DNA of 64,000 bases. Origin: a phage. The notes below the pieces were generated by a model. The model made no database searches, was not told the DNA's origin, and saw only the letters and a list, made by a program, of their open reading frames with translations. The position numbers were made by a program, and so were the translations under genes. Shown here piece after piece: positions 15,229 to 61,310 of the stretch. The stretch lies in the sequence record PZ445444.1. One strand, written 5' to 3'. Each line of letters begins with the position of its first letter. The first letter of the stretch is position 1.

Positions 15229-15246
15229 TTTCTTAACTGAATTATC

Positions 15247-15275
15247 AAGGGGCTTAAAGGCCCCTTTCTTTTTGT
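15247..15275 (+). terminator. rho-independent terminator
   Basis: AAGGGGC-ttaaa-GGCCCCTT hairpin followed by TCTTTTTG. Confidence 0.65.
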
Positions 15276-15879
15276 CTGCTCTTCTCCTACCATAAACGGC
15301 CCTACCTGGCAAGTGGAATAATTGACTAGCCATCAATCCCACATACTGTACAAATATACATTGAAAATAACTATTGCATAATTTTTCATTGTGTGGTAGC
15401 AGGGCCATTTTTACCCGTTTTCTCTCCCAAAAGTGCACGTAATGCCGCTATTGCACAAATTTTAACCTGATGCACATCTCCAATATCTTGTCAACAACTA
15501 AAAATCTTTATAAGTCATACACTTACACAGCATCGAAAGCGTGTTCTACGCGAAAAATAGAGTATAACTATAGCCGCCAGATCTCAGAATTCACGTACGC
15601 ACGCCATTCTATAGCCTGCAAAGTATTTATTCCAACCACAGAATAAAGGAATAGTCAATACCTGCATAAAATAATTATTCGTGTAAACTGCATAACATAA
15701 ATCAGCTCAGGTGTCAACATTTTTCGTAAACAGCCCGAAATTATCACGATGAGTTATCATAAACAGAGAAATCTTTAGTCGTCTAATGTTTACTGTACAT
15801 TACTATACTGACTGGAATCATTAGATGACTAAGAGAAAGATAAGAAATAATTAATAATGTAATTGTTTTACCTGTAACA

Positions 15880-16145
15880 ATAAGGCAACTATGCAAACGA
15901 ATGGCATGGCGCGACGGAGTCGCGACATAATATAAAAGCAGTAACCATCACCCCCGTGATAGTTTGTCTGCAAACTATTAATCAGATCATAGTTGCCTTG
16001 TATTTAGTTAATCATGACATAACAAGCAAGGCAACTATAGATCTTATAATAGTTGCCCTGCTTTTATATTATGTCATGCTAATTATAATCAGTGCGATTA
16101 TTGTCATGTATAATTATTGTCATGCAAACGAATGGCATGGCTGAT
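15880..16145. repeat. cluster of direct and inverted repeats
   Basis: GCAAACGAATGGCATGGC at about 15893 and 16125; CAAGGCAACTAT with inverted ATAGTTGCCTTG copies; ATTGTCATG repeated. Confidence 0.55.
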
Positions 16146-16153
16146 TATCGGTG

Positions 16154-16239
16154 TGTAAACAGTCAATCATGTAAATGGTTAGCATGTGAACAATCAGGAA
16201 TGTAAACAATCCAGTGTGTAAACTAATAGGTGTGTAAAA
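16154..16239 (+). repeat. iteron array: six TGT(A/G)AA(C/T/A) heptamers at a regular 15-16 bp spacing
   Basis: heptamers start at 16154, 16170, 16185, 16201, 16217, 16233. Confidence 0.65.
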
Positions 16240-17693
16240 GTGTCATGTTGTGTCAGTTAGGTCACATTATGTCAGACAAGTTTTTCTCCTCTTTGTCAAG
16301 TGCTGCATGAAAAATTTACAATCTTGTATGGTAGCATTTTTGCGGCCCTGTTTACATTCAGGAGTGTATGTATAATCCTTGGTGTGTGGGCGTTTAGACG
16401 TCTAGACGGTCAGAAGTCTGCAGGTCAATATCTAATCTATTGGCTGCTAACTATATCCCCCACAAATAATAAGAAATATAATTGTTATGTGCGTAAACAG
16501 TAACCCATGTTATCAATCCCTGTATGTATCGCCAGTGGTGCGCATAATGGGTATTATGTTAAATTGCCCGTAATGATAACTATTCTCACAATGATAGGTA
16601 TTCTCATTCACTCCCACAAGATAGGTTGCAAATGTTGTGCCATTGTGTGAACGGCCTCACCTATTAATTTGCCTCACTGCCTCGATATTTGAGAATTGTT
16701 ATAAGAATGAGAATGATTCCCATTTCGTCCGCCTAGCAGCACTCCTGTAGGACAAGCACAAAATCGTGGCATAGCTGGACCTGTTCAGATATTTCTGGCT
16801 GGCTCTTCAGGTCTGTGTGGGAAAAGCCAACCCCCTCCGGCGGCGGGGAGGGTGTCAATTAAAAAATTTACGGGGTATATGAAGCGCTCTTCAGGTAAGG
16901 CATGTACTATGGGATGAAACCCTCTTCGGGCAATGATATTTGTGGGTGTGATATTTGCTGGAAAGCCAGATATGACGGGACTCCCGGCGGGGCAGGGGTA
17001 GTACAGACAGGGAAAATATGGGGATGTAGTTGGGTGAATTGATCGGGCAGGTAGAGTATGGAATATGTTACAAGTATGTTAAATATGGAGGGTGAATATC
17101 TGCAGGATTTGTGTGTAAAATCAAAGACTTAAGTAGTGTTGTGGTATTTTCTATAAATAATTCAAGTTTAATAGGTAATATTTGTCTCTATCCACTTTGT
17201 GTGGTAAACAAATTCAAATGAGATTGGTTTACAAGTGTATACATAATATACAAATTAAAGATACAAGAAACCCCCCTCCCCCTTCGGCTACCATTCACCT
17301 TTTCCTCTGACTGGTACTTAAACACTTATTCAGACTCTTCAGGTTATCACCCATATACCATATGGCAGTGACTGGTGTCCTCCGGCCCCTCTTTCGTCAC
17401 CCGTCCGCTTCGCCATGCTAATGCCATAGCCAAATGTTCGGTTGTTCACCCTGTTCACTCAGGTGTATCTCCATACCCCTTCAAACCGAAGAGAACAGAA
17501 AACCCGAATTACTCGGTAAAAGAAAAGAGAAGAACTTAATTTTATCAGGATAGGCAAGAATGTCAAGGCATGACTGCTCACTAAACAAGCAAACAGTCAT
17601 GTGTGGGAGGTAAGTGATTGTGGTGGTAGGAAATTTAGTTGAAAGATGTGTTATAGGTGCTTCCAGCACTTTAGCCTGGCAGCTAATTGTGTG

Positions 17694-48924: not shown

Positions 48925-50060
48925 ATTGCTCCAACATTTCTAAGAACGTTAACAAGTTTTGTTTGATCATTGAATGTTCGCTTCATATACAAACAGTCAA
49001 AAATTATACTCATCCATTGACCTACGGAGATTCTACGATCAATACCATTGAAGTCAGTATACTTAACAACACCTTTCGGGAACCACTTCTTGTACTGATC
49101 AATAATAGCCACCCACATCTCCTTTGGAGTGCTGCACTGAGACAGTAGGTAGAATGCTGAGGCATCTCCGAACTTACCCTTACCGATAAGTCCTTGATAC
49201 GGCTTGATGTTGTCAGCAGAGTCACCACACAGCATTTGGTATCCGAAGAACAGCATTCCGTAACCACCAACCTCTCCATTAGGCTTCATGAAGATGTTCC
49301 CCATACCGTTATCGATCAGCATAGGGGTTTCCCTTACAAAATCTCCCTTATCGTTTCGCATGGGATCGAACACAAGCCCCGGTAGTGTTCTTTGGTCCTT
49401 ATCAATAGAGATAATAAACTTGTTGAACTTACCTGTTTTTTGGTAGTGGTTCCAACCTTCAAATTGCTGGATAGCTAACCAGTCATCAGCCTCGATACCG
49501 TTGATCACTTGAGCATTATACTGCTTTTGGAGATACTGTCTTGCATCTCCAAGCAGCAGTGGTCGAAGAGTATTGTTACGGTTGGCTTTGTATCTTTCCG
49601 GCATTGGAAGATCTAGTCTGAAGTTACCTGTGCCTCCCAACACCCCGACACATCGCTCTTCCGGAATACCAAGATAGTTAAGAACTGCATTTGCCTTACA
49701 TTTTATTGTGTGCAAGCAGTTCTCTACAGGGTCAGGTGTTTGGATATCCAAGACATCAAAATCTTCACGTGTCCACGGAATAAACTCCTTACCAGACTTT
49801 TTACATGCGGCTTCACGGTTGGTATTCTCAGCTTTTAGCCAACCACCAACGGTGTTCTTCTGCCGCCCCCAGAACTCTGTTCGTGTTTTAAACATCTTCT
49901 TACGTCCGGAGGCTTTGTGTGTTACCTCAATTGTCCTTTTTTCACAACTTGCTGCAGCTTGATATGCAACCTGATCGAAGTCATAATAAACTATAGCGTC
50001 AGGTTCAAGAAGATCAGCCAGACAATCTATGGACTCAATAAGTGGATATTCTCTACTCAA
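48921..50060 (-). CDS. 5'-3' exonuclease / flap endonuclease (RNase H-like)
   Basis: 379 aa; GIEADDWLA motif and H3TH-like GDSADNIKPYQG. Confidence 0.75.
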   Translation of the reverse strand: MSREYPLIESIDCLADLLEPDAIVYYDFDQVAYQAAASCEKRTIEVTHKASGRKKMFKTRTEFWGRQKNTVGGWLKAENTNREAACKKSGKEFIPWTREDFDVLDIQTPDPVENCLHTIKCKANAVLNYLGIPEERCVGVLGGTGNFRLDLPMPERYKANRNNTLRPLLLGDARQYLQKQYNAQVINGIEADDWLAIQQFEGWNHYQKTGKFNKFIISIDKDQRTLPGLVFDPMRNDKGDFVRETPMLIDNGMGNIFMKPNGEVGGYGMLFFGYQMLCGDSADNIKPYQGLIGKGKFGDASAFYLLSQCSTPKEMWVAIIDQYKKWFPKGVVKYTDFNGIDRRISVGQWMSIIFDCLYMKRTFNDQTKLVNVLRNVGAI

Positions 50061-55801: not shown

Positions 55802-56712
55802 TGCATATAGTTCTCGTTGTGGAAATAGTAATCAAGTATCTCACGGCGTTCCTGCTCCAGGAGGCAGTTCCACACATCTTCTGTGTAATTGTTACTAATG
55901 AAGTTTACCATGCCGTAAAACTCTTCGTCAACACGTTTAAAGATATCATCATCCCAAATCTTCCAAGCTTTACCCCTCATTACGGCCTTCCGTGCCAGGT
56001 AGTATGGAGACTTGATCTTCAGCTGCAGGTCATAAGGGTAGTAAGGCTTACGGATCATATACCCTTCGCCCCTTGTTTCTGCGGCTAATTCTTTTGCATA
56101 GCTGAACGGGATTTCACGCACAGTGTGAGGACGTTTTGCACCAAGGTATTTGGCAATCCCATCTAAAGCTGCTTCTGGTAGCATTATTCCAGAATCATTA
56201 TATCTGCAACCTATCAAATATGCGCCATGGTCTTCTTGAACAATATGCGGATCTGAAGGGTGACAAATTTCAAACATGAATGTCATGTTTTCATTGCCCA
56301 TAACCTTCTTGATAAGATCTAAATTACCACATTGCTCTTGGATGGTTTCCTTTGCAAGGTTACAATATGGAGAATCAAGAGACCCGGTTGTTGAGAACAA
56401 TAGGTCACCTTTATGAGATGATACCACACCAAGGAATCCGTTCTTTTTCTCTACCGCAGTCACAAGCTTATTGTCAGGCAGGTTGGTGGAGTTTTCTCCC
56501 AAGTTAAACACTTTTGTGAAGGGCCATGCCACAACATTTCCTTCATTACCTACAACAATGCCTCGGCACTCCAGTAAACGAGGGGACAAATGCCATAAAT
56601 TGTTGTAAAATACTTTTCTAGCATATTTATAGATCTTTAACCCGAGATCTGGGTAATACCTACTGGTTACAAGACCTTTGTCAACTAGGTCGTCTGCATT
56701 AAAATACTTCAT
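55798..56712 (-). CDS. RNA ligase-like nucleotidyltransferase
   Basis: about 304 aa from ATG with GAGG RBS (track start 56733 also possible); motif I-like KKNGF, motif IV EGYMIRK, motif V LKIKSP. Confidence 0.65.
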   Translation of the reverse strand: MKYFNADDLVDKGLVTSRYYPDLGLKIYKYARKVFYNNLWHLSPRLLECRGIVVGNEGNVVAWPFTKVFNLGENSTNLPDNKLVTAVEKKNGFLGVVSSHKGDLLFSTTGSLDSPYCNLAKETIQEQCGNLDLIKKVMGNENMTFMFEICHPSDPHIVQEDHGAYLIGCRYNDSGIMLPEAALDGIAKYLGAKRPHTVREIPFSYAKELAAETRGEGYMIRKPYYPYDLQLKIKSPYYLARKAVMRGKAWKIWDDDIFKRVDEEFYGMVNFISNNYTEDVWNCLLEQERREILDYYFHNENYMQ

Positions 56713-56776
56713 TATATGTTCCTCATTTATCATTTTGTCAGTCTATCCTGCCACACAAATAACCTAGTGTCAACAC

Positions 56777-56805
56777 TTGAAATTAACAAAACAGTTAGGT
56801 ATACT
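56777..56805 (+). promoter_or_regulatory. sigma70-like promoter in divergent intergenic region
   Basis: TTGAAA, 17 nt, TATACT upstream of the kinase gene. Confidence 0.45.
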
Positions 56806-56833
56806 ACCGTTGAAATTAAAACGGAGGGTCACT

Positions 56834-57244
56834 ATGTCTAAAATGCTATATATCGTGCGTGGTCTACCAGGGTCTGGCAAATCAACACTGGCAAATGCGC
56901 TATCTTTAGAGGGTCTGTATCCACATTTTGAGAACGACATGTTCTGGTATGACGATGACGGCAATTACAACTGGGATGCAAGTAAAGTAACACTCGCAGC
57001 AAAATGGTGCAAAGATAACGTAGAAGATATGATGCGTATGGGATACGACCGTATCGTGGTAAGTAATACGTTTACAAAAGAAAAACATGTGCAGGAATAT
57101 GTTGACATGGCAATCAGTCATGGGTATAGTTATACCGTGATCGTGGTTGAAAACCGCCACGGTAATAAAAGCATTCATGATGTTCCAGACAAGGTTGTGG
57201 ATCGTATGGAACGCCAGCTTAAAAACTGCATTAAACTTAAATGA
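56834..57244 (+). CDS. P-loop kinase (polynucleotide-kinase-like)
   Basis: 136 aa from ATG with GGAGGG RBS; Walker A GLPGSGKST near N-terminus. Confidence 0.65.
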   Translation: MSKMLYIVRGLPGSGKSTLANALSLEGLYPHFENDMFWYDDDGNYNWDASKVTLAAKWCKDNVEDMMRMGYDRIVVSNTFTKEKHVQEYVDMAISHGYSYTVIVVENRHGNKSIHDVPDKVVDRMERQLKNCIKLK

Positions 57245-57251
57245 GGAATGT

Positions 57252-57806
57252 ATGAAATACTTTGTAACAAGCGACACACACTTTCTCCACCAGCGGGTCA
57301 TGGAGTTTGATTCATGTCAAAAACACAGATCTCAGTATGATCACAATCTTGACAGTATGAATGCGGGAATCATCGCCGAGTGGAACTCTGTTGTGTCACC
57401 TGCAGACACTGTGTTCCACTTGGGAGATATTGCGTGCACTAATGATAAGAATATCAACAACTTACTTCCAGATATTCTAAATATGTTGAACGGACATATT
57501 ATTCTTGTTCGTGGCAACCATGACACAAGGACGACTGTCAGAATTATGAAAGAGTTCGGTCATGAGGTTGTAGATTATTACGAGCTTCGCCACAACAAGA
57601 ATTTGATCTGTATGAGCCATTACCAGTTTGCAAAGTGGAACAGAAAGCCTCACGGATCAGTCCAACTGTTCGGTCATGCTCACGGAACCACACAACAGTT
57701 GTTTGGCAGGCAGCTTGATGTCGGTTGGGATGTGTGGGGGAGACTCTTACCATTAGAAGAGGCATACCGTATTGCAATGAGTTTTGATATTGACAGCAGG
57801 GAGTAA
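57252..57806 (+). CDS. calcineurin-like metallophosphoesterase
   Basis: 184 aa from ATG with GAGGAA RBS; motifs SDTHF, GDIA, GNHD. Confidence 0.75.
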   Translation: MKYFVTSDTHFLHQRVMEFDSCQKHRSQYDHNLDSMNAGIIAEWNSVVSPADTVFHLGDIACTNDKNINNLLPDILNMLNGHIILVRGNHDTRTTVRIMKEFGHEVVDYYELRHNKNLICMSHYQFAKWNRKPHGSVQLFGHAHGTTQQLFGRQLDVGWDVWGRLLPLEEAYRIAMSFDIDSRE

Positions 57807-57853
57807 TCCCTGCTATTTTAAAGAAAATTGCCACACAAGGAGAATCAGGAGAT

Positions 57854-58204
57854 ATGAAAGATGGGGATAAGCTGCTATATCTTAAAGTCCCCCTTGAAAT
57901 ACTATCTATGTCAAAAGTTTTGAATGACACAACTGGGGAGGTTGTTGTTCTTGACTTGTATGACAAGATCGTATACTGCTACCTGCACAACTGGTATAAG
58001 CTTGGAGGAAATTCACGCTTCACACCAAGCACAAGGAAAATTGCAGCAGATGTTGGGATAAAGAAAACAAAAGCAGCAGCGTGCGTTAAAACTTTAGAAT
58101 GTGCAGGAGTGGTTGAAACATCCACACAAGGGAGAGGTAAAAGATGCACATTTTCCAAAGTTTTGCCACCAGAAGAAGTTATTCGGATGTCAACAACTGG
58201 TTAG
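57854..58204 (+). CDS. hypothetical protein, possible HTH DNA-binding
   Basis: 116 aa; helix-turn-helix-like segment STRKIAADVGIKKTKAAACVKTLECAGVV. Confidence 0.5.
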   Translation: MKDGDKLLYLKVPLEILSMSKVLNDTTGEVVVLDLYDKIVYCYLHNWYKLGGNSRFTPSTRKIAADVGIKKTKAAACVKTLECAGVVETSTQGRGKRCTFSKVLPPEEVIRMSTTG

Positions 58205-58278
58205 ACCAGTAAAAACTTAAATATCTGTACTATAAGGATTCGTATGTTTTATGTTCGTCATGGAACGGATACTATTAA

Positions 58279-58361
58279 CTGTCCGTGATACGGACACTAC
58301 TGTCCGTCACGCGGACACATCTGCCCGTAATACGGACACTAACTGTCCGTGATACGGACAC
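58279..58361 (+). repeat. four tandem ~21-bp repeats, each an inverted repeat TGTCCGT-nnn-ACGGACA
   Basis: CTGTCCGTGATACGGACACT / ACTGTCCGTCACGCGGACACAT / CTGCCCGTAATACGGACACT / CTGTCCGTGATACGGACAC. Confidence 0.7.
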
Positions 58362-58494
58362 ATAAAGAATATAACTAAAATAACTAAATAATAAAAAATA
58401 AAAGATCTAGTACTTATGGTACTAAGTACATATACTTAACTTATGTAGAATATACTAGATCCTAAGTACCATGTTTTAAATTTATTACTTACTA

Positions 58495-58745
58495 TGGGCA
58501 GTGTCGGCCCTTCATTGGCACTCGCCTACGAGGGGCGAGATGCCGGGCCTCCTTGGTGCACACAATAACAGAAGTTCATACATGCAGGTCTGTTAACATG
58601 TGTGGGAGCGAAGCGATAGCGCAGGCCAAAGGCCGAGCACTGATGTGGACCACCGACGAAAGCTTGCCAGCGCCGTAAGGAGTCGGTTGAGAGTCTCCCG
58701 CGCGAGCTTGGATGAAGTTTATGTGTGGAAACTGACAAGAAGGCC
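58495..58745 (+). ncRNA. GC-rich structured non-coding island (unassigned candidate RNA)
   Basis: local GC well above the window average; nested complementary stems such as GGCACTCGCC/GGCGAGATGCC; the only ORF here (minus, 70 aa) has a non-protein-like translation. Confidence 0.3.
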
Positions 58746-58864
58746 CCTAAATCGCTCCACAGCTATATAAACTATACCAGGTAATGCAATCGCACCAGTT
58801 TGATAGAAAAGCTCGTTACAAAGCGATACAGTGAGTTTTTCTATAACTTGAAGAGGAGGCAGCT

Positions 58865-59443
58865 ATGGGTTCACGCAAAGATGACCGTGAAAAGATTGCA
58901 AAACGTTATCAGAATGAAGAACAGATGGAGAAAACTTTCAAGTGGAAGCCCGGTTTCCAGCGTAATCATTCTAACGCTCGTGATCGTAAGCATCCGGATA
59001 AGTGGCTAACACCGCCAAATGATGGCATGCAGGTTGGGGATGAGAAGGAGATGTCGCCTGGAAAAGATGGCAACTACATTCGCACTAAGGACGCTGGTCC
59101 AAAGGATGACAGCTATCTTGTAGATAAGGTTCTTGATGGTATCAATGTAGATGTTGACACTGCACGAAACCTTTTTCTTGGGTGGTATCGCACAGGTTTT
59201 TTCGACATCAAGGCTATTCGTCGTGTTTGTGATATTAAAAAGTCTGCCTATGATGATGACTCTCTACATCGCACTCTGAGACAATACTCAGAGAGATACG
59301 GTCATCCAGTTATCACTCTTGACGATATTAACGAAGTGATGTATCATGCAGAGGTTGTTGCAGGTAGATTCGGTGATGCATATCTCGGTATTCTTTCTGC
59401 AAAAGATGAGGTAATGTTAAATAAAGTTTACTATGAACGCTGA
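58865..59443 (+). CDS. hypothetical protein
   Basis: 192-aa ORF, GAGGAGG RBS. Confidence 0.6.
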   Translation: MGSRKDDREKIAKRYQNEEQMEKTFKWKPGFQRNHSNARDRKHPDKWLTPPNDGMQVGDEKEMSPGKDGNYIRTKDAGPKDDSYLVDKVLDGINVDVDTARNLFLGWYRTGFFDIKAIRRVCDIKKSAYDDDSLHRTLRQYSERYGHPVITLDDINEVMYHAEVVAGRFGDAYLGILSAKDEVMLNKVYYER

Positions 59444-60307: not shown

Positions 60308-60646
60308 ATGGCGGATACAACTAAAAAGCGTCGCCGTAGAGGCAGACCTCTGAAAGAGGAGTCCAACGCCATTCAGCTAGAGAAGAACATCCTTGATATG
60401 AAGGAATCTTTTATAGCGATGGTTCCAGAAGCTCACAAAGTTTTAAGAGAGCTGATGTTGGACCCGAAAACCAAACAAAATATTCGTCAAAGCATTGCAG
60501 AGTATGTTCTTGATAAGGCAGACCGAATGCAGGAAGAATATGATGAGATGTTTGGTGAAGAGGAAGAGGTGGTAGTAGAAGAGGCTGAAAAACCAGCACC
60601 TTTTATGCCATTCACCACAGAAATACAGCCTGTTGGCAATAGTTAA
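60308..60646 (+). CDS. hypothetical protein with basic N-terminus and acidic C-terminus
   Basis: 112 aa from ATG with GGAGG RBS; N-terminal KKRRRRGRPLK. Confidence 0.55.
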   Translation: MADTTKKRRRRGRPLKEESNAIQLEKNILDMKESFIAMVPEAHKVLRELMLDPKTKQNIRQSIAEYVLDKADRMQEEYDEMFGEEEEVVVEEAEKPAPFMPFTTEIQPVGNS

Positions 60647-61211: not shown

Positions 61212-61310
61212 GCTAGGTAAGCCCTTTGGCAAGGGCGAGGATTTTTAATCCTGAAAATAGACGAGGTAGTCGTTGAATACATAGGTGGTTCGATTCCATC
61301 ACCTAGCACC
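61212..61310 (+). tRNA. tRNA-like gene, atypical (99 nt; anticodon loop TTTTTAA suggests TTT/Lys; ~28-nt variable region)
   Basis: acceptor GCTAGGT/ACCTAGC, D arm GCCC-TTTGGCAA-GGGC, 4-bp anticodon stem AGGA/TCCT, T arm GGTGG-TTCGATT-CCATC; CCA not fully encoded. Confidence 0.4.

Follow-up and report, generated by a model that had tools for sequence, protein, structure and literature searches.

A candidate iteron-type replication origin module with a minimal winged-helix initiator in an rV5-like coliphage

Positions 57790 to ~58790 of a 64,000-nucleotide stretch of phage DNA (sequence record PZ445444.1; the whole stretch is referred to as the window) are proposed to form an iteron-type replication origin module with a minimal initiator, helpful to the phage but dispensable, with an estimated probability of about 0.55. 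The module consists of an early promoter, the gene for a 116-amino-acid (aa) winged-helix protein (ORF79), an array of four semi-palindromic repeats (dyads), an A+T-rich stretch, and a GC-rich structured element (Table 1). Of the hallmarks of iteron origins, it has phased repeats, an adjacent A+T-rich element, and a neighboring candidate initiator gene 76 bp from the first dyad.

The window belongs to an rV5-like coliphage of the genus Vequintavirus. Over the 3 kb surrounding the array, identity is 99.9% to Escherichia phages HdK5, inoa, and PMBT16 and 98–99% to more than 100 further Vequintavirus genomes. The open reading frame (ORF) at 57854–58204 is ORF79 of rV5, annotated in the rV5 record as a “putative transcriptional regulator”; most database entries for the protein carry this label, some RefSeq records name it “replication initiation protein”, and the array is marked merely as “repeat_region” in several records. 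The label “replication initiation protein” is thus already in the databases and is not new. The apparent novelty lies in defining the cis module, in how it is conserved, in an initiator without further domains, and in a structured element shared with satellite-like plasmids. In the rV5 genome paper, the origin was sought by AT/GC skew alone, which revealed only shifts linked to the direction of transcription (PMC3606486). A literature search with the dyad sequence gave no match.

An earlier note on this DNA had described, after a helix-turn-helix (HTH)-like ORF, four head-to-tail inverted repeats about two helical turns apart. The ORF is present on the + strand, and four tandem units with this spacing (21, 21, and 22 bp from start to start) do follow it; dyads 1 and 4 are perfect, while dyads 2 and 3 each carry one mismatch. 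The units are direct repeats with an internal 7 + 7 dyad around an N3 center, devoid of a poly-A tract, and their asymmetric C…C flanks make them semi-palindromic rather than pure palindromes. With up to two mismatches allowed, the 17-bp dyad occurs at four sites in the 64 kb, all of them in the array, against 0.08 expected from shuffled sequences (four matches in 0 of 100 shuffles). The array lies outside the gene, 76–156 bp 3′ of the ORF79 stop codon, and no dyad is found at the promoter of ORF79. Half-site centers are 10 bp apart and units 21–22 bp apart; on this geometry, dimers bound to all four sites would share one face of the helix. Of note, three independent short-read Logan metagenome contigs (L012, L021, and L022) break off inside or just past the array, presumably because tandem repeats interrupt assembly.

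By nearest-neighbor stability, no duplex in the 64 kb is weaker than the A+T-rich stretch next to the array, in windows of 30, 40, 60, 100, and 135 bp, and this stretch is a candidate DNA-unwinding element. It contains a top-strand A-tract, interleaved repeats, and four GTAC-core motifs, which bears out the AT-rich stretch with AGTAC/GTACT palindromes described earlier. Upstream, the rV5 record annotates a promoter at the position equivalent to the early promoter of ORF79. No terminator-like site was detected by a scan of 56600–59000; therefore, transcripts from the early promoter would cross both the array and the A+T-rich stretch. A hairpin read directly from the sequence (AGCAGGGA-GTAA-TCCCTGCT followed by ATTTT, 57796–57822), which is absent from the output of the terminator scan, overlaps the metallophosphatase stop codon and the −35/spacer region of the ORF79 promoter; as read from the letters, it may represent a terminator/promoter overlap.

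Table 1. Positions of the features of the candidate origin module in the window.
Feature	Position	Strand	Details
Early promoter, sigma-70-like	57790–57819	+	TTGACA-18-TATTTT with TG; 10/12 matches
ORF79 (bas54_0212)	57854–58204	+	Stand-alone winged helix, 116 aa; candidate origin-binding initiator
Hypervariable spacer	58255–58277	.	23 bp, abuts the array on the left; 39–65% identity between lineages
Iteron array	58278–58361	.	Four semi-palindromic 21–22 bp units; Tandem Repeats Finder (TRF) score 110
Dyad 1	58280–58296		TGTCCGT-N3-ACGGACA, perfect
Dyad 2	58301–58317		TGTCCGT-CAC-GCGGACA, one mismatch
Dyad 3	58322–58338		TGCCCGT-AAT-ACGGACA, one mismatch
Dyad 4	58344–58360		TGTCCGT-N3-ACGGACA, perfect
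Candidate DNA-unwinding element	58362–58496	.	135 bp, 80% A+T; begins one base past the last dyad
Short repeats	58371–58396		ATAACTAAA, in the A+T-rich stretch
AGATCT; AGATCC	58403; 58457		In the A+T-rich stretch
GTAC-core palindromes	58409–58429		AGTACTTATGGTACT at 58409, GTACTAAGTAC at 58419
GC-rich structured element	58497–58790	+	54–58% GC; composition, phage/plasmid comparison
Hairpin A	58506–58549	+	Two compensatory pairs
Hairpin B	58645–58701	+	Three compensatory pairs in a 6-bp stem, none broken there

The ORF79 protein is related to replication initiators in both sequence and predicted fold. Its best match among protein families is PHROG 12838, “replication initiation protein” (5e-80), with weaker matches to PHROGs 8102, 428, and 270; these are families of longer initiators, and ORF79 aligns to their N-terminal part every time. 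The closest solved relative by sequence is 4RO3 (phmmer E 3e-6, 30% identity), the RepA N-terminal domain (NTD) from PLE, a Vibrio cholerae satellite of phage ICP1. An AlphaFold2 (AF2) model built from an alignment with 39 homologues is a confident winged helix (predicted local distance difference test score, pLDDT, 81.5), while the fold from the single sequence was unusable (pLDDT 39). In Foldseek, 4RO3 is again the top match (E 1.6e-5, template-modeling (TM) score 0.65), followed by 4PQL, 5KBJ, and 4PT7, the iteron-binding NTDs of staphylococcal RepA_N initiators (E 6e-4 to 2e-3, with 6e-4 to 1.5e-3 for 4PQL and 5KBJ; TM ~0.55), and generic winged helix-turn-helix (wHTH) regulators rank below these. 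The protein ends after the wing and one short helix and is thus an N-terminal DNA-binding domain only. Precomputed Pfam labels of its close homologues include PF13730.

Single-sequence searches of 5.8 and 1.8 billion proteins returned relatives almost solely within the genus, and IMG/VR contained none. A profile seeded with two syntenic outgroup proteins and two weak matches collected 40 proteins in four groups. The nearest homologues outside the Vequintavirinae are 182–217 aa long and carry acidic C-terminal tails ending in PF or WE, reminiscent of the tail of single-stranded DNA-binding protein (SSB); one of them is encoded near a family-A DNA polymerase gene. In L013 (2240–2520) and L015 (2260–2525), these longer homologues sit downstream of a 500-bp intergenic region with 4–5 AGGTACA motifs, two of which follow an A+T-rich stretch as a tandem pair spaced 22 bp.

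Published transposon data link the gene to the array. In the HIDEN-SEQ screen of Bas54 (phage MaxBurger), the ORF79 orthologue bas54_0212 was classed as “Intermediate” (17/20 TA sites, mean 13.6 reads), as was bas54_0213 (4/7 TA sites, mean 18.1 reads), while the flanking units were neutral with 139.9, 134.9, and 139.5 reads (bioRxiv 10.1101/2025.11.20.689424). In the Bas54 record, bas54_0213 (Bas54 132621–132722) is a small called ORF that spans dyads 1–3 and most of dyad 4. Relative to the flanks, insertions are depleted ~10-fold in the gene and ~8- to 10-fold in the array. The neutrality of insertions in bas54_0214, bas54_0216, and bas54_0217 speaks against polarity. A single fitness defect thus unites the gene with the array and sets both apart from their neighbors.

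The same data bear on the notion that the ORF79 protein is a small terminase or a centromere-type protein and the repeats are a pac or partition site. Small terminases such as lambda Nu1 bind repeated sites via a winged helix, these records annotate no small terminase, and the gene for the large terminase is located ~4.5 kb downstream. However, a terminase subunit or a pac site should be essential, yet insertions are tolerated in both the gene and the array; there is no match to a terminase or ParB/ParR family, and a lytic phage has no evident need for partition. Both readings were rejected on the grounds of non-essentiality and the lack of family matches and are considered extremely improbable.

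Conservation singles out the array and the A+T-rich stretch. In one Vequintavirus lineage, identity is 97.6% for the array, 94.1% for the A+T-rich stretch, 86.6% for ORF79, and 89–92% for the flanking genes. Across lineages, the array is 97.6–100% identical, making it the most conserved segment of the neighborhood, and the A+T-rich stretch is 94–99% identical. The 23-bp spacer abutting the array falls to 39% identity in a lineage in which the array retains 97.6%; in the window, this spacer holds a degenerate half-site, ACGGATAC. Judged by sequence comparison, the array and the A+T-rich stretch are under purifying selection.

Within the array, only dyad positions 3, 7, and 11 and the middle N3 carry substitutions, and the spacers between units are as invariant as the arms. 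Over units and lineages, positions 7/11 occur as T/A, T/G, C/G, and C/A, and position 3 of unit 3 (pair 3/15) is a C–A mismatch on the transcribed strand. Since pairing at 7/11 and 3/15 is not kept, hairpin formation is not what selection conserves, which argues against a role as RNA or cruciform and for recognition of TG.CCG/CGGACA by a protein. It was considered whether the dyads are tandem RNA hairpins in the 3′ untranslated region of ORF79, acting as terminators, stabilizers, or processing sites. Each unit can form a 7-bp stem with a 3-nucleotide loop, transcription from the upstream promoter would reach the array without first meeting a terminator, and the innermost stem position of unit 2 reads T/G, C/G, or T/A depending on the lineage. 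Nevertheless, no unit is followed by a U-tract, the terminator scan is empty, neither strand preserves pairing at the variable positions, the spacers separating the units are as constant as the would-be stems, and the corresponding repeats of sister genera form A+T-rich weak stems upstream of the gene. This interpretation was rejected for the lack of conserved pairing and is very unlikely.

The layout recurs in sister genera with repeats of different sequence. Seunavirus 4MG and a group of Klebsiella/Raoultella phages, all of the same subfamily, encode a diverged ORF79 homologue of 105–129 aa beside a repeat-bearing intergenic region. The Klebsiella/Raoultella repeats read TAATTATTCC-N6-GGAATA (2–3 copies, 24-bp period), and those of the 4MG group read (G)CTCAAATTGA(GC) (2 copies, 23 bp). 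Klebsiella-type sites combine conserved arms with variable centers, fitting dimer-binding sites. In each group, a colinear A+T-rich stretch of the same orientation comes after the repeats and contains ACTAAC-type short repeats and AAGATCT palindromes. Each palindrome type adjoins its own diverged homologue, and on this comparison protein and site appear to co-vary across genera. In these genera the homologue gene is on the opposite strand, and the repeats lie in its (divergent) promoter region. Autoregulation is likely in the Klebsiella/Raoultella-type loci because one repeat overlaps the ribosome-binding site of the gene. By analogy with plasmid initiators, for which autoregulation is common, this would be no argument against an origin.

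The earlier note had left the choice between an origin and an autoregulatory site open. Its proposal of iterons plus a DNA-unwinding element gains support from the initiator relatives, the easiest-melting DNA, the recurring layout, and the shared transposon defect, whereas autoregulation fits this phage poorly because the array is 3′ of the gene and has no copy at the gene’s own promoter. In a broader version of this alternative, the ORF79 protein would regulate transcription and the array would be its cooperative operator, where four in-phase dimers cause repression, activation, or a roadblock, with the A+T-rich stretch supplying promoter elements. The target would be transcription from the early promoter into ORF77–74, an essential gene for a 112-aa protein, and the tRNA cluster. 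The prevailing database label agrees with this reading, as do the generic wHTH repressors among the weaker fold and sequence matches, the promoter-region repeats of the Klebsiella- and 4MG-type relatives with the ribosome-binding site overlap in the former, and a site predicted by PhagePromoter in the A+T-rich stretch of phage Gotham. An intermediate fitness defect common to gene and array suits a regulator and its operator equally well, and many plasmid initiators double as autorepressors, so both roles can coexist. However, the dyad lies 3′ of the gene and nowhere else in the 64 kb, a consensus scan of 58200–58900 found no sigma-70-like promoter, and the neutral insertions in bas54_0214, bas54_0216, and bas54_0217 make no downstream dependence visible. 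In addition, the nearest characterized relatives by sequence and fold are initiators rather than repressors, and the layout recurs at an obvious iteron origin in plasmids (see below). A regulator–operator pair is the main alternative, possible but less probable.

The last component of the proposed origin module, the GC-rich element, is recognized by its composition and by comparison with plasmids. No ORF spans the whole element, and an 18-bp deletion within it in rV5 leaves the ORF78 call (window 58600–58770) intact. Neither strand of the single sequence folds significantly better than its shuffles (z −1.4 and −1.3), and it takes comparison with the plasmid copies to reveal hairpins A and B. 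Their G–U pairs are compatible with the + strand only. Because essentially only two lineages supply the five compensatory changes, every pair is to be taken as a single event. In Rfam, the GC-rich/intergenic region has no match at the gathering score (best rli43, 21.9 bits versus a cut-off of 100), and searches at gathering thresholds returned tRNAs only. As far as its sequence goes, the element may be a priming/loading signal or a structured RNA. An exact 19-mer of the hairpin B core gave 19 matches in genome contigs, all in unrelated GC-rich bacteria, and these were dismissed as chance.

Two blocks of the element are ~85% identical to unannotated DNA in NZ_CP020521.1 (L025/L027), CP148565.1 (L047), NZ_CP035869.1 (L048), and NZ_CP043822.1 (L026), which are small circular, non-mobilizable Escherichia coli plasmids of a 13.2–13.7 kb family. 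In NZ_CP020521.1, seven 19-nucleotide semi-palindromic iterons (23-bp spacing) are followed by three A+T-rich 36-nucleotide repeats, the GC-rich element, and an HTH_36 gene, so the order of iterons, A+T-rich DNA, and GC-rich element is identical in phage and plasmid. The plasmid iteron, ACCCCGGTAAATATTTCCG, is present in 7 copies in NZ_CP020521.1 and 6 copies in a 39.6-kb record, mostly at 23-bp spacing; a motif scan found two copies in CP148565.1 and none in NZ_CP035869.1. The 39.6-kb record has three matching places and may be a trimer, judged by its size only. The HTH_36 protein (288–303 aa) matches replication-initiator and DnaD-like PHROGs (3e-12 to 1e-5) and aligns with the profile built for the ORF79 family (hhalign E 1e-5).

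Besides the HTH_36 initiator-like protein, the plasmid family carries genes for a major capsid protein, a tape measure, and a baseplate-like protein (baseplate/tail-fiber-like in the 13.7-kb element), and its members therefore look like phage satellites or mini phage-plasmids; tblastn with these structural proteins gave no match within the 64-kb window. One might speculate that the GC-rich element is the loading/priming signal of the Vequintavirus replisome, copied by the 13-kb E. coli satellites behind their own iterons and initiator to hijack helper replication, a proposal that is regarded as doubtful. If true, the phage origin would be in two parts, namely a minimal, domain-less iteron binder whose sole task is to open the DNA, and a distinct structured cis element for recruiting the replisome. 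A PLSDB record, the 137.6-kb “plasmid” CP057073.1, also matches the GC-rich element and probably represents a Vequintavirus genome.

For the proposed origin, we infer a course of binding, melting, and replisome loading as follows. The early promoter would express the 116-aa winged helix, equivalent to the stand-alone DNA-binding NTD of PLE-RepA/RepA_N-type initiators. Dimers of this protein would occupy the four 17-bp dyads on one helix face and form a compact nucleoprotein complex, which is suggested to strain and open the adjoining A+T-rich stretch. The phage helicase-primase would then be loaded via the opened DNA and the downstream GC-rich hairpin element; this dependence is proposed since the protein is devoid of a C-terminal recruitment domain. 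Such an origin would raise fitness and still be dispensable, presumably because the phage has another route of initiation.

Several observations weigh against this interpretation. Pfam matches of ORF79 fall just below threshold (HTH_36, 24.5 versus 25 bits; DUF6945, 27.4 versus 28 bits), RepA_N (PF06970) and Phage_rep_O (PF04492) are not among its matches at E ≤ 1, and winged helices are also frequent in repressors. The protein has no C-terminal domain for recruiting a helicase or primase, and neither gene nor array is essential in Bas54. No DnaA box (TTWTNCACA) lies within 58000–59000, the nearest being at 49938 and 63555. The likeness of the A+T-rich stretches between genera is at the level of motifs only, and the promoter-region repeats of the sister genera would equally suit autoregulation. 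The position of the module speaks for an origin, as the switch between divergent strands and the minimum of the cumulative GC skew (~56–57 kb) are 1.5 kb away, but GC skew here is confounded by the direction of transcription (PMC3606486).

A further such point is the presence of a competing site. Bas54 has an intergenic region with zero transposon insertions (bioRxiv 10.1101/2025.11.20.689424), which maps to ~15229–17693 of the window (2.5 kb, without long ORFs). The zero insertions mark it as a second candidate for a cis-essential element. It coincides with the convergent junction of the + and − gene blocks and with the cumulative GC-skew maximum, carries scattered repeats, such as the 20-mer ATGCAAACGAATGGCATGGC in exact copies at 15891 and 16122 and a perfect 18-nucleotide inverted repeat at 15924/16058, and holds several of the next least stable duplexes. 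This region could be the main origin or the pac site.

Outside the module, the 112-aa protein mentioned above (window 60308–60646, phrog_3330) is encoded upstream of the tRNA cluster and is the orthologue of bas54_0220, which is essential, with an insertion in 1/20 TA sites (bioRxiv 10.1101/2025.11.20.689424). A 99-nucleotide tRNA-like gene at 61212–61310 is assigned an undetermined identity with a four-base anticodon (atcc) by ARAGORN and scores 35.5 bits in Rfam; other records name it tRNA-Lys or “tRNA-OTHER”. In addition, 18 “Campylobacter phage” records (MG0656xx; listed host Campylobacter jejuni) are ~99% identical to E. coli rV5-like phages in this region, and their names likely reflect mislabeling or contamination.

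Phages of the rV5 type are in wide use for E. coli typing, biocontrol, and therapy, and their replication origin has never been located. A 1-kb candidate with its cognate protein and a transposon phenotype makes the question directly testable. The candidate suggests that a large lytic phage could run a plasmid- or lambda-style initiator cut down to its DNA-binding domain. The common folded element provides a link at the sequence level between these phages and small capsid-encoding plasmids; it could expose a new helper–satellite pair and could supply a cis element for engineered phage-dependent replicons.

Among known systems, PLE offers the closest relative of the ORF79 protein. PLE RepA, which was assigned to the RepA_N family by structure rather than sequence, binds semi-palindromic iterons, as established by electrophoretic mobility shift assay (EMSA) and deletion, and drives PLE replication with the machinery of the helper phage (PMC7145576). 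Its NTD is a dimeric winged helix acting on semi-palindromic iterons in a non-coding region beside the gene, a layout like that of the window, and PLE replication relies on a phage-encoded replisome without a helicase or primase of its own, to which the ORF79 protein may be likened. In contrast, PLE RepA has a C-terminal domain and is borne by a satellite, while the protein of the window consists of just an NTD, with its gene on the lytic phage genome; iteron sequence and number are different as well.

The RepA_N initiators of pSK41 and pTZ2162 (4PQL, 5KBJ, and 4PT7) have a similar N-terminal winged-helix dimer fold. The ORF79 protein differs from them in lacking both a C-terminal domain and a Pfam RepA_N match. 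The origin of RepA_N plasmids is located inside rep, whereas the array of the window is outside the gene; the RepA_N hosts are mainly Firmicutes. Of the features that define the RepA_N group, the fold and the iterons are the only ones found here.

In T4, a large lytic phage, the origins oriF and oriG can each be dispensed with, as another mode of initiation exists. Like the window, they have an easily melted element beside a promoter, with transcription passing through it, but they have neither a dedicated sequence-specific initiator nor iterons. The ssi/primosome assembly signals adjoin plasmid origins such as those of R1, F, and ColE1. The GC-rich element similarly is a hairpin element of conserved structure a short distance beside iterons and an A+T-rich region; it has no similarity to any curated RNA family in Rfam, and a priming role is suggested by analogy.

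The anatomy of the module is also like that of ori-lambda. Both have four dyad iterons about two turns apart (20/24/23 bp in lambda, 21/21/22 bp in the window), a readily melting A-rich stretch that lies on the same side and strand and precedes further palindromes, an adjacent initiator gene, and transcription through the origin. However, the lambda iterons are inside the O gene, while the array of the window follows the stop codon, and the C-terminal domain of lambda O recruits P–DnaB, while the ORF79 protein ends after its DNA-binding domain. Lambda O matches Phage_rep_O at 5.7e-36, a family that ORF79 does not match, and BLASTP between the two proteins gives a non-significant E value of 0.29. 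By analogy, the origin module would thus resemble ori-lambda and the PLE/RepA_N origins in its workings, with an initiator that is not of the lambda O family.

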